From positions 12,777 to 76,776 of the forward strand of contig CAZUHV010000003.1 of NCBI GenBank assembly GCA_964620965.1: a stretch of DNA of 64,000 bases, in the 5' to 3' direction. Positions within the stretch are counted from its first letter, which is position 1. Every line of letters starts with the position of its first letter. This DNA is from an uncultured Pseudomonadales bacterium (GTDB lineage: Bacteria; Patescibacteriota; Microgenomatia; UBA1400; PJMF01). Shown piece by piece: positions 40,673 through 64,000 of this stretch. The position numbers and the translations under genes are program-made. The notes beneath the pieces are model-generated. The model was not told the DNA's origin, ran no database searches, and saw nothing but the letters and a program-made list of their open reading frames with translations.

Positions 40673-41047
40673 ATGTTTTTTGGAATAATACCTACAGTAT
40701 TTGCTCAAGAGGAAGTCAGCCCTTGTGGTGCTGGCAACGGAGGTATTAATCTTGGAAACTGTCTCAAACTTTCTGATAGTACTAGAGTTAGTGCTACCTA
40801 CGATACACCAGCATTTTTAGTTAATCTTATTATTAGTAACTTATTTGTTGTTGCTGGAGTAATTTTTTTCTTAATGTTAATTGTTGCAGGATTCAAGTTT
40901 ATTACTGGTGGCCAAAAAGGTGCTGAAGAAGCAAAAAATATTATAACTACTTCTCTAATCGGTTTTATTATTATGTTTGCAGCCTACTGGATTATCCAAA
41001 TTGTTGCATTGTTAACTGGTATTACAATTCCTGGAGTAAGCACCTAA
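40673..41047 (+). CDS. T4SS pilin-like protein, paralog 1 of 8
   Basis: Short leader MFFGIIPTVFAQ. Core LFVVAGVIFFLMLIVAGFKFITGGQKGAEEAKNIITTSLIGFIIMFAAYW. C-terminus GITIPG. Confidence 0.6.
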   Translation: MFFGIIPTVFAQEEVSPCGAGNGGINLGNCLKLSDSTRVSATYDTPAFLVNLIISNLFVVAGVIFFLMLIVAGFKFITGGQKGAEEAKNIITTSLIGFIIMFAAYWIIQIVALLTGITIPGVST

Positions 41048-41048
41048 T

Positions 41049-41456
41049 ATGACATTTTTTAAAATTCCAACCGTCTACGCTCAAACTGATCCCAACGAAC
41101 TTGTCGGAGATTTGGAAATTCCTAAGGGTGTAGATCTCATAAACCAAGATGCTGGTGGAATTGGAGTAATTTTATTTATTTCAAACATGATCAAGTTTGT
41201 CATTATTCTTGGAGGAATCTGGGCATTAATTAACATTATTTTTGCTGCATTTGCATATCTTACAGGAGGTGGGAAAGCAGACTCACACACTAAAGTTAAA
41301 GATAGATTTACTATGAGTATTATCGGGCTTATCTTAATGATTGTAGCGTATACAGTCGCTGCACTGGTTGGACAAATTTTCTATGGAGATCCAAACTTTA
41401 TTTTAAACCCAACATTAGAAGCTATTGCACAACCAACACCGACCCCAACACCATAA
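41049..41456 (+). CDS. T4SS pilin-like protein, paralog 2 of 8
   Basis: Leader MTFFKIPTVYAQ. Core ...ILGGIWALINIIFAAFAYLTGGGKADSHTKVKDRFTMSIIGLILMIVAYT...FYGDPNFILNPTLEA. C-terminus is a PT tail. Confidence 0.6.
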   Translation: MTFFKIPTVYAQTDPNELVGDLEIPKGVDLINQDAGGIGVILFISNMIKFVIILGGIWALINIIFAAFAYLTGGGKADSHTKVKDRFTMSIIGLILMIVAYTVAALVGQIFYGDPNFILNPTLEAIAQPTPTPTP

Positions 41457-41457
41457 T

Positions 41458-42057
41458 ATGAAAGTACTACTAATAAAAACACTTAGAAACTTTATACTTA
41501 CCTTCTTTACAGGACTTCTGTTTGCAGGAGTATTTTTTTCGGCAACTCTTATTTCTCCAAAACCTACTCTTGCTGCTTGCAGATATGCAGGCCAATGTGA
41601 TGATAATAGTATTTGTAGATGCCGAGAAGATTTAAATCCAATCGCTTGTTACTACATGGTTCGGTATGGAGATCCAGAGTCTGCATTAGTTCATAGTGAC
41701 GAAGCTTGTGGTTCTGCAATTATCGGTGGGGTTGAACCACCAGATGCAGTTGCAGCAATTAACCAGCAATCTGGCGGAGATATTGGCTTAATTTTCTTTA
41801 TTTCCAGAATAATAAATTTTGCCAATATTATAGCTGGGATCTTGGTCATGATTAATTTTGTCTACTCAGGATTTCTGTATGTTACAGGGGCTGGAAATGC
41901 TTCAAATATGTCTAAAATTAACGAAAGAATGATGTGGAGTGTTGTTGGGATATTAATGATCGTTGGATCTTATACACTTGCAGCAATTTTTGGATTGGTA
42001 TTCTACGGAGACCCAACATTTGTTATCAACCCAACTTTAACAGGAGCACTTAACTAA
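41458..42057 (+). CDS. T4SS pilin-like protein, paralog 3 of 8, with a Cys-rich N-terminal insertion
   Basis: The start is taken at MKVLLIKT; the ORF track starts at 41425, overlapping the previous gene. A 6-Cys segment CRYAGQCDDNSICRCREDLNPIACYY...EACGS precedes the pilin core. The C-terminus FYGDPTFVINPTLTG is shared with paralog 2. Confidence 0.55.
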   Translation: MKVLLIKTLRNFILTFFTGLLFAGVFFSATLISPKPTLAACRYAGQCDDNSICRCREDLNPIACYYMVRYGDPESALVHSDEACGSAIIGGVEPPDAVAAINQQSGGDIGLIFFISRIINFANIIAGILVMINFVYSGFLYVTGAGNASNMSKINERMMWSVVGILMIVGSYTLAAIFGLVFYGDPTFVINPTLTGALN

Positions 42058-62200: not shown

Positions 62201-62217
62201 ATAGTATAGTAACACTA

Positions 62218-62922
62218 ATGAATAAATTGATTGACATATTAGTTAATAAGTTTAAAAACCTTTCTAGAGTTTCAAAAGTAACGTTACTTGTCGTGTTTAT
62301 TCTTGGCTTTTTTGGTTTACTACTGCAAACCCTCTATCCAGATATTCCACCAGGAGTTTATTCTATAACACCAGAAACTCTGTATGGCATTGATGAAAAC
62401 TCAGATTTTGAGATAACGTTTAATAAAGTACTAGACGAATCCACAAAGAAAAAACTTTCTTTAAAAATCACTCCAGAAATTACTTCTGATAATCATTGGA
62501 AAGAAAACAACTATCAATACACAATAAATAATACTGGAAAATTAAAGCTAAACACTACCTATACAATAGCCGTTTTATATAAAGGTAAAGAAATTTACTC
62601 AAAAGAGTATTTAACTTCAAGATACACGCTTGAAGAACAGGCTGAACATGTAAAAGAACAAGGAGAAGCAGATATCAAGTTTAATGAAGCAGTCACAAAC
62701 TTGAGACTACAGTTTTCTTGGTATGATGATATTCCTATAGATACCCCACAATATACAATTGTGTATGACTATGATGAAAAAAAATTCAGAATTAGACTTA
62801 AAATACCTAAAGATTCTAGTCAAGAAACAATACAAACTCTCACAGACAAAGCCCTTAAAGATATGCAAGATGTAAATATTGATACCACAAAATGGGGATA
62901 TTACGTTTTATTTTCAGAATAA
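62218..62922 (+). CDS. Hypothetical bitopic membrane protein (possible VirB8-like component)
   Basis: 234-aa ORF with a single N-terminal TM segment VTLLVVFILGFFGLLLQTL and a soluble domain of about 200 aa. The VirB8 assignment is inferred from position and topology only. Confidence 0.4.
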   Translation: MNKLIDILVNKFKNLSRVSKVTLLVVFILGFFGLLLQTLYPDIPPGVYSITPETLYGIDENSDFEITFNKVLDESTKKKLSLKITPEITSDNHWKENNYQYTINNTGKLKLNTTYTIAVLYKGKEIYSKEYLTSRYTLEEQAEHVKEQGEADIKFNEAVTNLRLQFSWYDDIPIDTPQYTIVYDYDEKKFRIRLKIPKDSSQETIQTLTDKALKDMQDVNIDTTKWGYYVLFSE

Positions 62923-62966
62923 AATAAACTAGCTAGAGATCATTCAAAAATGGTATAGTAGTACAG

Positions 62967-64000
62967 ATGCAAGAACACCCAATCCCGCAAGATATTACCG
63001 GGTATAAGTTTCATATTATCGGAAGCATGACTCTCAAGCAGTTTGGAGAGATTTTTTTGGGTGTTATTCTTGCTGTTATTTTTTATAAAACAAACCTTAT
63101 TGGTGTTATAAAATGGCCGTTAGTTATTCTTAGTTTTGGAATGGGAGTCGCTGCGGCCTTTCTTCCAATCGAAGAAAGGCCATTAGATCACTGGATCATT
63201 ACTTTCTTTAAAGTACTATATAAACCTACAAAGTTTTACTGGAGACGTGAACCTAAAATTCCAGAACCTTTTACTTACAAACCTGAAATTGAAAAAATTG
63301 AAGATAACACTTTAGATTTAACCCCCGCAAAAAGACAAAGAATTCGAGAATATGTTGGGTCTATTCCCGAAGTTTCTGCCACACCACAGGATTTTACTAA
63401 TGATGAGCTATCTAGAATGCAGAATATATTAACTTCATTTACAGAAGTTCAAGTAAAAACTCAAACTATAACTACAACAGAAACCAAGCAAGAAAAACCT
63501 AGAATTGATGTACGTGTCAGAAAAATGAGAAAGCCTGTGGCTCAAGAAGTTGTTATTTTTGGAAACGATACCGTAATTCCACTTCATACAGAAGGAATTT
63601 ATGAAACTCCTCAAAGGAAAACTCTAAACCCCCAAACATTTGATCAAAAAAAATCTATTCTTGCCACAGACCAAGTTGCTACTGACATAGAAATACCAGA
63701 AGAACAAGCTATTAAAGCTGTTTCACAAGAAGAGGTTGAAGAAAAGCTCACAAGTACTCATGAATCTGTGAATGATATGAGTGAAAAATCTTTTATAGAA
63801 GCTGAGTCAACAAATAAAGAAGAAACTATTGCTACAACAGAAGCTTCATATAATACAAATCTTCCGTTTCCTATTAAGCCTACAGAACCAAACAAAGTTG
63901 TTGGAATGGTTTTAAGTCAGAATAATGATTTACTCACAAATGCTATCGTTGAAATCCAAACTACACAAGGAAGTATTGCCCGAGCTGTTAAAACAAATGC
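62967..64000 (+). CDS. PrgI/VirB3-like T4SS protein with a long C-terminal extension, 3'-truncated by the window end
   Basis: N-terminus MQEHPIPQDITGYKFHIIGSMTLKQFGEIFLGVILAVIFYKT...WPLVILSFGMGVAAAFLPIEERPLDHWI matches the PrgI-family pattern (IP.DI..YK.K...G.T.RQ plus two TM segments). The ORF is open to nt 64000. Confidence 0.55.
   Translation, partial: MQEHPIPQDITGYKFHIIGSMTLKQFGEIFLGVILAVIFYKTNLIGVIKWPLVILSFGMGVAAAFLPIEERPLDHWIITFFKVLYKPTKFYWRREPKIPEPFTYKPEIEKIEDNTLDLTPAKRQRIREYVGSIPEVSATPQDFTNDELSRMQNILTSFTEVQVKTQTITTTETKQEKPRIDVRVRKMRKPVAQEVVIFGNDTVIPLHTEGIYETPQRKTLNPQTFDQKKSILATDQVATDIEIPEEQAIKAVSQEEVEEKLTSTHESVNDMSEKSFIEAESTNKEETIATTEASYNTNLPFPIKPTEPNKVVGMVLSQNNDLLTNAIVEIQTTQGSIARAVKTN

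Follow-up and report, generated by a model that had tools for sequence, protein, structure and literature searches.

The stretch of DNA analysed here, called the window, comprises 64,000 nucleotides of a patescibacterial genome, and the question it raises lies toward its downstream end: what machine is encoded from position 40050 onward, and what does that machine move? A first-pass annotation had read 40673-64000 as a type IV secretion system (T4SS) of the monoderm or Candidate Phyla Radiation style, with a role other than classical conjugation. We find the first part of this reading supported by component matches, by synteny and by the literature. The nonconjugative role is also supported, although it had already been proposed in print (PMC10633639, PMC12102498). 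Taken together, the data make it probable that 40050-64000 holds most of the chromosomal, origin-adjacent T4SS of a Microgenomates (Woesebacteria/Pacebacteria-like) patescibacterium, a system of the kind that is essential for epibiotic growth in the saccharibacterium Southlakia epibionticum.

To place the locus among its relatives, we ran a pattern scan with its 555-amino-acid (aa) protein, which led to 345 species-level genomes. Eighty loci from these were compared, and every protein of the window was run against them by tblastn; labels such as L001 and L003 denote related loci or contigs compared with the window. Locus genes were also searched against Pfam, NCBIfam and PHROGs. The gene order from 40673 to 64000 is eight pilin genes (pil1-8, plus strand), followed by genes for proteins of 1173 aa (plus), 376 aa (minus), 555 aa (plus), 1004 and 402 aa (both minus) and 740, 1481 and 234 aa (all plus), and finally a PrgI-like gene (plus) that is cut by the window end. 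All open reading frames (ORFs) of the first-pass annotation were present where it had put them, and its inventory of genes stood except that the minus-strand 376-aa gene had been overlooked. Across the 80 loci, the common order is a sigma factor gene (minus), pil1-8, the 1173-aa gene, the 376-aa gene (minus), the 555-aa gene, a variable stretch, the 1481-aa gene, a gene for a small exported protein and PrgI. The housekeeping neighbors are constant across species, with NUDIX, sigma factor and mevalonate genes on one side and dnaA/dnaN on the other.

The contigs of relatives continue past the point at which the window stops. There, the PrgI-like gene is followed by a gene for a 260-aa protein that is 55-90% identical across relatives, and next by an ORF of 600-800 aa, present in all 24 loci tabulated. 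In L090 this ORF encodes a 680-aa protein that matches P-loop_TraG, AAA_10 and CagE_TrbE_VirB; 22 of the ORFs were aligned and are 70-92% identical to the one in L090. Further on, L090 carries dnaA, dnaN, rnpA, yidC and jag. Because the relatives' contigs show the order 260-aa gene, VirB4, dnaA, we place the end of the locus at VirB4, beside the replication origin. The 260-aa protein is putatively TrsD, judging from its position and from a 2025 survey of patescibacterial T4SSs (PMC12102498); its family profile returned nothing from a search of all PDB sequences.

The pilin array

Eight tandem plus-strand genes at 40673-44347, encoding proteins of 124-210 aa, all match the T4SS_pilin family (PF18895), bearing out the eight pilin-family genes that had been proposed here. 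Five of them, with E values from 4e-11 to 9e-9, pass the Pfam gathering score: pilin 4 (42088-42465, E 3.6e-11), pilin 5 (42471-42905, E 1.7e-10, with a weak TrbC/VirB2 match as well), pilin 6 (42905-43342, E 5.3e-9), pilin 7 (43463-43840, E 3.9e-11) and pilin 8 (43925-44347, E 9e-9). The VirB2-like pilin 1 (40673-41047, E 7.9e-6, 26.3 bits) and pilin 2 (41049-41456, E 1.1e-5, 25.9 bits) fall less than 1 bit short of the cut-off of 26.6, and pilin 3 (41425-42057), a 210-aa protein with a cysteine-rich N-terminal extension, matches weakly (E 3.7e-3, 17.8 bits). Since eight tandem genes match one small family, we regard these matches as real rather than due to chance, and all eight genes have positional orthologs in relatives, those of pilin 1 being 60-84% identical in near relatives. 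The start codon of pilin 3 is uncertain because its ORF overlaps that of pilin 2. Each of the eight proteins has two hydrophobic helices of the VirB2 type, and a [VF][FY]AQ motif ends the signal sequence in seven of them as well as in the 555-aa protein.

We found the same pilin paralog at the same rank across dozens of related genomes. Paralogs within the array share 19-60% local identity (mean, 34%), whereas for positional orthologs from near relatives the range is 42-84%, with most paralogs at 60-84%. Because rank order is kept and orthologs exceed paralogs in identity, the array appears to be ancient, with each paralog under its own constraint. The conserved positional orthologs argue for fixed, distinct roles of the paralogs, and a heteromeric pilus, or a set of major and minor pilins, fits the array better than ongoing antigenic variation does. 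The pilin 7 paralog is duplicated in many relatives.

Pilin domains also occur outside the array. A satellite pair on the plus strand, encoding proteins of 402 aa (27979-29187) and 151 aa (29190-29645), matches PF18895 above the cut-off (32.3 and 31.7 bits). The longer of the two carries its pilin domain at the C-terminus (residues 323-390) and could be a tip or adhesin-type pilin. Elsewhere, on a metagenomic contig (L112, 11213-19671), the 260-aa gene is present without VirB4 after it, and minus-strand genes and seven plus-strand ORFs of 113-151 aa are found in that place; this contig may represent a rearranged locus with a second pilin-like array.

Candidate channel parts and wall hydrolases

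The gene at the window end (62967-64000, plus strand) had been called PrgI/VirB3-like. Residues 5-88 of its product align with positions 1-87 of the 91-position PrgI model, so that essentially the whole model is matched, but at a score under the Pfam cut-off (E 7.4e-5, 23.7 bits; cut-off, 27). At full length the protein has 392 aa and a C-terminal Ig-like CarboxypepD_reg domain (L001, L083). Its N-terminus contains overlapping hydrophobic windows at residues ~21-62, which can be read as a transmembrane (TM) hairpin.

The 555-aa protein (49248-50915, plus strand) is polytopic, with a signal peptide, a basic tail, an ectodomain of ~150 aa with invariant cysteines and about six or seven hydrophobic helices. 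Its family has more than 828 homologs, none with a Pfam domain, and those to which their sources give a name are Woesebacteria, Pacebacteria or Microgenomates. In each of the 80 loci its gene lies at the same place, after the pilin array and ahead of PrgI/VirB4. The protein had been annotated as VirB6/TrbL-like. The polytopic topology and the place within the operon hold; homology is not supported, as 21 members of the family (the window protein and 20 homologs) gave no Pfam match to TrbL/VirB6 (PF04610) at E values up to 5, and the family profile run against PDB chains, VirB6/TrwI included, gave nothing significant, its single match (E 8.5) being due to chance. Topology and position nevertheless make the 555-aa protein the obvious VirB6 candidate for Microgenomatia.

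Between the 1481-aa gene and PrgI lies a gene for a bitopic 234-aa protein (62218-62922, plus strand) for which a VirB8-like identity had been suggested. By sequence, that identity is not supported: the ectodomain is an Ig-like Big_5 domain (E 6.6e-9, above the cut-off), the protein has no VirB8 match in Pfam and no match of any kind in NCBIfam, and relatives carry proteins of 200-390 aa at this position, with a PEGA domain in L090. Hydropathy indicates one TM helix.

The 1173-aa protein (44406-47927, plus strand) is the first of two wall-hydrolase candidates. Conservation of its gene in 56-65 of the 80 loci marks it as a core part of the locus. The protein has one N-terminal hydrophobic segment, 24 cysteines and a strongly acidic net charge, and is for these reasons predicted to be secreted or anchored on the outside. 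It had been described as belonging to no recognizable family. The window protein alone indeed has no match in Pfam, NCBIfam or PHROGs, and its family profile found nothing among all PDB sequences; its homologs and a structural model, however, do place it. An AlphaFold2 (AF2) model built with 57 homologs reached a mean pLDDT of 86, and Foldseek matched it only to (beta/alpha)8-barrel enzymes, the best being PslG, GH5_18, GH1 and mannanases (probability up to 1.0, with modest E values of 2e-3 to 1e-2). One homolog passes the Pfam cut-off for glycoside hydrolase (GH) family GH5, while the window protein stays below it. The strand-helix pattern of the model and the GH5 match of this homolog place the barrel in the N-terminal ~270 residues. 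Within the family of 57 sequences, G136-N137-E138 (GNE) and E238 (TEF) are nearly invariant, and E138 and E238 are putatively the acid/base and nucleophile of clan GH-A.

The C-terminal ~160 residues of the 1173-aa family fall into at least four unalignable types, the three commonest of which share an E-S-G motif. Of eight homologs scanned that are distant or partial, seven match SLT_3 (PF18896), a lysozyme-like domain found at the C-terminus, six of them clearly (E 2.5e-13 to 9e-8) and one weakly (E 9e-3). A hidden Markov model made from the C-termini that bear SLT_3 did not detect the C-terminus of the window protein, and the profile of that module itself found no relative in the PDB. On the model and its homologs, the 1173-aa protein is likely a secreted glycan hydrolase and VirB1 analog, with central domains of unknown kind. 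One homolog, P0189, has a T4SS_pilin domain at its C-terminus in place of the lysozyme-like module, an architecture which suggests that proteins of this type can be physically joined to the pilus.

The second candidate is the 1481-aa protein (57755-62200, plus strand), whose parts were defined from Pfam, hydropathy and orthologs. It consists of an acidic, cytoplasmic region of ~1100 aa without hydrophobic segments, glycine-rich membrane helices at ~1112-1234 and a CHAP-like peptidase domain predicted to be extracellular. The first-pass annotation had called it a CHAP hydrolase. In favor of this, a cysteine motif (YWCTW, with the cysteine at ~1369) and a histidine motif (GHVAV, with the histidine at ~1430) are both in place, matching the catalytic pair; the CHAP model itself (PF05257) is matched at the C-terminus only weakly, below the Pfam threshold (E 1.6e-4, 22.6 bits; cut-off, 26). 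The domain had no match among PDB sequences, and the ortholog in L166 also shows a weak CHAP match. Orthologs are found in 47 of the 80 loci, with the middle and membrane parts kept and the C-termini varying between Peptidase_M23 (E 1e-19), M23 with NAGPA, and CHAP. PrgK, TraG and TcpG are multidomain wall hydrolases with CHAP, M23 or SLT modules, and the swapping of modules seen here would be consistent with a wall hydrolase of this type. To our knowledge, the long cytoplasmic region of the 1481-aa protein has no counterpart in PrgK, TraG or TcpG.

The hypervariable slot

The variable stretch begins directly after the 555-aa gene. In the window it holds genes for a mostly helical cytoplasmic protein of 1004 aa (51040-54054, minus strand), an acidic cytoplasmic protein of 402 aa (54088-55296, minus strand) and a cytoplasmic protein of 740 aa (55489-57711, plus strand). 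The first position, which we call the slot, is filled by one intact minus-strand ORF in 58 of the 61 loci with enough sequence, and this ORF encodes 450-1800 aa (median, 1074 aa). In the other three (L019, 11747-15055; L024, 11746-15432; L076, 6626-9739), the slot is fragmented or has no ORF of at least 80 aa over 3.4 kb, without runs of N; these may be pseudogenes or assembly errors.

While the position is conserved, its content is not. Slot proteins fall into at least 18 BLAST clusters, and among 1.84 billion representative proteins only 20 relatives of the 1004-aa protein were found. We measured turnover in pairs of genomes that share at least 70% identity in the 555-aa protein. In these pairs, slot proteins were detectable by BLAST only 23% of the time, with a median identity of 42%, whereas the 376- and 1173-aa proteins were always detectable, with median identities of 69-70%. 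The window's clade alone has at least three unalignable slot types: A (window, L164 and L167), B (L163, L166, L004 and L009) and C (L003). The type A proteins of L164 and L167 are 34-39% identical to the 1004-aa protein, and the sister clade adds types D (L005, L006) and E (L007). On a simple neighbor-joining tree of the 555-aa protein (338 columns), the types are intermixed, with the window (A) joined to L163 (B) at 97% bootstrap and L164 (A) placed within a 90% clade alongside L003 (C), L004 (B) and L009 (B). This pattern is suggestive of recombination that replaced the slot, or of the sorting of old alleles, in addition to fast divergence.

None of the three proteins could be assigned to a family by sequence, in agreement with the first-pass annotation: the 1004-, 740- and 402-aa ORFs all lack a match in Pfam, NCBIfam and PHROGs. 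A Pfam domain was likewise absent from ten slot proteins scanned. The AF2 model of the 1004-aa protein is confident (pTM 0.75) and has no counterpart in the PDB. We looked by eye for a C-terminal signal shared among slot proteins and found none. The 402-aa protein has homologs in 4 of the 80 loci plus L163, L164, L166 and L167, at 24-50% identity, and its family profile matched only coiled-coil noise in the PDB. The 740-aa gene occupies the same position in ~10 of the 80 loci, with other plus-strand ORFs there elsewhere; its start codon is uncertain (it was called as 727 aa on a Logan contig), its family comprised 11 clusters in a word-indexed search of 5.8 billion, and the family profile had no match in the PDB. 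By this distribution, the 402- and 740-aa genes appear to be clade-restricted accessories of the locus. The idea that the large unassigned genes travel with the pilin array is thus borne out for the 1173-aa gene, holds for the 1004-aa gene as a filled but hypervariable position, and fails for the 402- and 740-aa genes, found in only ~4 and ~10 of the 80 loci.

Could the minus-strand giants (the 1004- and 402-aa proteins and their counterparts) be unrelated to the T4SS, for example a variable defense or selfish island in a permissive spot? Their opposite strand, the number of clusters, the discordance of the types with the flank tree, the small number of relatives in the databases and the lack of Pfam domains are all as such insertions would have it. 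Against this, nearly every locus has the slot filled by a single ORF of comparable length; neither an integrase nor a transposase nor a repeat was noticed at its borders; and no known defense or phage family was matched in NCBIfam or PHROGs. In addition, hhalign gave a weak match between type A and the largest slot cluster at corresponding positions (E 2e-4, probability 45%), and the slot types may represent one very divergent superfamily. We therefore regard unrelated insertions as unlikely.

A different possibility, which we put forward only tentatively, is that the slot is a cassette of large, structured cytoplasmic proteins that are exchanged by recombination among Microgenomates lineages, diverge much faster than the machine and act as T4SS effectors or host-specificity adaptors. 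If so, slot proteins would be the first in-locus substrate candidates for a patescibacterial T4SS, and the C-terminal modules of the 1173- and 1481-aa proteins would swap in parallel because the machine's outward-facing edge as a whole follows the diversity of hosts. No account of a slot of this sort was found in full-text literature searches; PMC12102498 does not use the word "hypervariable", and the sections of it used here make no mention of a variable slot.

Function, setting and known systems

These parts suggest a working model for the T4SS. VirB4, aided by the 260-aa protein at the TrsD position, would power a membrane channel made of PrgI/VirB3 and of the 555-aa protein as VirB6 analog. 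The 1481-aa CHAP-like protein and the secreted, glycosidase-like 1173-aa protein would open the wall, the cell's own and possibly the host's, and the pilins would be exported to form a mixed or switchable pilus contacting the host bacterium. The machine would then serve host contact or delivery into the host bacterium. As there is no relaxase, protein is a likelier substrate than conjugative DNA, and the fast-turning cytoplasmic proteins encoded on the opposite strand (1004 and 402 aa) would be the best in-locus candidates for cargo or host-specificity adaptors.

Several observations weigh against this account. Three of the pilin matches (pil1-3), the PrgI match and the CHAP match all lie under their Pfam cut-offs. 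The 555-aa protein is tied to VirB6 by topology and position alone, and the locus yielded no VirB8-like part. VirB4 and the complete 260-aa gene were seen only in relatives; a Logan contig with the window's sequence breaks off within the 260-aa gene. A comparison of the 260-aa family with VirB4 by hhalign, between two alignments of low diversity, gave a probability of 0.45%. The cargo idea for the slot proteins lacks direct support, and we know of no patescibacterial T4SS with a demonstrated secretion substrate. Finally, a 777-aa coupling-protein-like (VirD4-like) ATPase is encoded at 9125-11458 (minus strand; TrwB_AAD_bind, 29.8 bits against a cut-off of 20.5; DUF87/HerA), and its presence in the window leaves room for DNA transport.

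This ATPase lies ~30 kb from the T4SS locus, to which it is only putatively linked; most patescibacterial coupling-protein homologs lie far from virB4, according to the survey sections on which we draw (PMC12102498). Along with it, the 376-aa protein (47974-49104, minus strand) raises the alternative that the locus moves nucleic acid in a manner like ComB or GGI, feeding a nucleotide-auxotrophic cell or exchanging DNA with the host. The 376-aa gene is present in 61 of the 80 loci. The protein is cytoplasmic and has no match in Pfam, NCBIfam or PHROGs, but its family profile matches the PDB chains of DHH-fold proteins (RecJ-like, TM1595, NrnA and a DHH phosphodiesterase; E 2.9e-8 to 2e-3). All orthologs have a disordered tail rich in lysine and arginine (in the window, 47974-48366). 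An AT-hook-like KRGRGRPKG occurs in this tail only in the window, L004 and L009, and many ortholog tails end in a short motif, PG[GD]L.[YH].P[SG]; the tail resembles, and may be, a docking or secretion signal. A conserved RecJ/NrnA-like protein with a basic tail inside the locus, the coupling-protein-like ATPase and the absence of nucleotide synthesis in Patescibacteria (PMC10633639) would all suit nucleic-acid transport. However, DHH and DxD motifs were not visible when the family consensus was read by eye, for which reason the protein may be a pseudo-enzyme with its catalytic motifs lost; Pfam and NCBIfam scans found no nuclease or single-stranded DNA-binding protein within the locus, and no relaxase; and in S. 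epibionticum the T4SS is essential, but comEC-dependent DNA uptake and the coupling-protein homolog are not. On balance, we consider nucleic-acid transport quite unlikely.

That the region is an integrated conjugative element, with its relaxase and integrase outside the window, is very improbable and we rejected it: although its core is related to monoderm conjugation machinery (PMC12102498, in the sections used here) and a TrwB-like ATPase lies 30 kb away, the synteny is conserved, the same housekeeping neighbors recur in hundreds of species, GC content is even across the window with no compositional break, neither relaxase nor integrase was found in the ORFs scanned, and the same sections of the survey count 109 relaxases in 103 Patescibacteria genomes, of which 15 are near virB4. 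As the first-pass annotation had stated, family scans found no relaxase, integrase or coupling protein in 40673-64000; a relaxase domain was also absent from the ORFs scanned at 31-64 kb and from 20 ORFs scanned upstream of 31 kb.

An ECF (extracytoplasmic function)-type sigma factor gene (40050-40574, minus strand; Sigma70_r2, Sigma70_r4_2 and Sigma70_ECF in Pfam) diverges from pilin 1, occupies the same position in relatives and is a putative regulator of the locus. No ECF-type promoter was seen upstream of pil1 or of the 555-aa gene, despite this neighbor. Instead, a conserved sigma-70-like extended -10 box precedes each of them, TACTATATAATA before pil1 (window 40640-40672) and TGATATAAT or TGTTATAAT before the 555-aa gene (window 49215-49247). 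These boxes, seen in most related loci (L003-L019) too, end only ~10-15 nucleotides ahead of the start codon, which suggests very short or leaderless transcripts from both genes. A promoter and terminator scan of 44-63 kb did no better than on shuffled sequence. Directly downstream of the sigma factor gene are two small ORFs (63 and 112 aa; 39520-40046, minus strand) without a Pfam match, which are possible anti-sigma factor candidates. Adjoining the T4SS locus is a complete mevalonate-pathway operon (31719-38735, minus strand) with genes for a thiolase, a 3-hydroxy-3-methylglutaryl-CoA (HMG-CoA) synthase-like protein, HMG-CoA reductase, GHMP kinases and diphosphomevalonate decarboxylase, flanked by NUDIX genes. 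The sole tRNA gene of the window is a tRNA-Ile (anticodon TAT) at 5290-5363 (minus strand).

Among the closest known systems is that of S. epibionticum ML1 (Wang et al. 2023, PMC10633639). Its T4SS cluster, SEML1_0006-0019, lies near the chromosome start, a few genes beyond recF. Transposon sequencing showed the T4SS and its pilin array to be essential, and no relaxase or coupling protein is recognizable (PMC10633639). Compared by gene content (SEML1_0005-0019), the two loci share a chromosomal position by dnaA, tandem PF18895 pilins (six there, eight here), a PrgI-like gene followed by one for a protein of ~290 aa and then by VirB4 (here on the contigs of relatives), the lack of a relaxase, a hydrolase of lysozyme type (a candidate here), a PEGA/Ig-like exported protein and several proteins of ~1000 aa of unknown role. 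They differ in that the VirB6-like protein of S. epibionticum has 1088 aa and was recognized by structure, whereas the candidate here has 555 aa and was not recognized, and in that S. epibionticum has an NTF2-like (VirB8-like) protein and none was found here. The DHH-fold gene, the GH-A-like 1173-aa protein, the divergent ECF sigma factor and the opposite-strand hypervariable genes are extra in the window.

The 2025 survey (Quinonero-Coronel et al. 2025, PMC12102498), in the sections used here, describes a Patescibacteria-specific VirB4 clade related to monoderm MPF-FATA systems, with TrsD and PrgI adjoining virB4, few relaxases and a position near dnaA. It reports VirB2 arrays of 2-11 genes, abundant in Microgenomatia, whose variability may help the cells adapt to various host strains. 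It finds few VirB6 proteins in Microgenomatia, where it suspects extreme divergence, and only rarely a VirB1 near virB4. A 2025 review gives the same picture of the patescibacterial T4SS (PMC12857230). As in those sections, we see a VirB4 (on the contigs of relatives, and putatively MPF-FATA-like) adjoined by a candidate TrsD and a PrgI-like protein, near dnaA and without a relaxase, and low identity among pilin paralogs (25% on average there, 34% local identity here). Unlike in those sections, VirB6 and VirB1 candidates are at hand (555 aa; 1173 and 1481 aa), and the positional orthologs of each pilin paralog are conserved.

Monoderm MPF-FATA systems (pCF10 Prg/Pcf, pIP501 Tra and pCW3 Tcp) have PrgI/VirB3, VirB4, a polytopic VirB6-type protein and a membrane-anchored, multidomain wall hydrolase (PMC12102498, same sections), for all of which the locus and its continuation in relatives offer counterparts or candidates. 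They differ in having a relaxase, a coupling protein within the operon and surface adhesins, and in having no pilins, whereas the locus has eight pilins and a hydrolase with a cytoplasmic N-terminal region of ~1100 aa. The T4SSs of Bartonella and Anaplasma (cited in the same parts of PMC12102498) likewise carry virB2 as several diverged tandem copies. Antigenic or host-range variation is the presumed purpose of those arrays, whereas the eight paralogs here appear old and individually conserved.

In the one patescibacterial species in which this was tested, the epibiotic lifestyle depends on the T4SS. The locus offers testable candidates for parts that eluded the survey in Microgenomatia, namely a VirB6 analog and VirB1-type hydrolases. 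Between close relatives its slot turns over, yet VirB4 remains 70-92% identical across the related loci compared. Cargo or specificity factors that face the host would be expected to show such a pattern; if slot proteins are of that kind, comparative genomics alone could be used to seek the cargo of the machine. Systems of this kind were already published in 2023 and 2025, and their existence is not new here. What the present locus adds to them is a set of VirB6 and VirB1 analog candidates for Microgenomatia, pilins that are individually conserved, hydrolases with swapping modules and, above all, the hypervariable slot.

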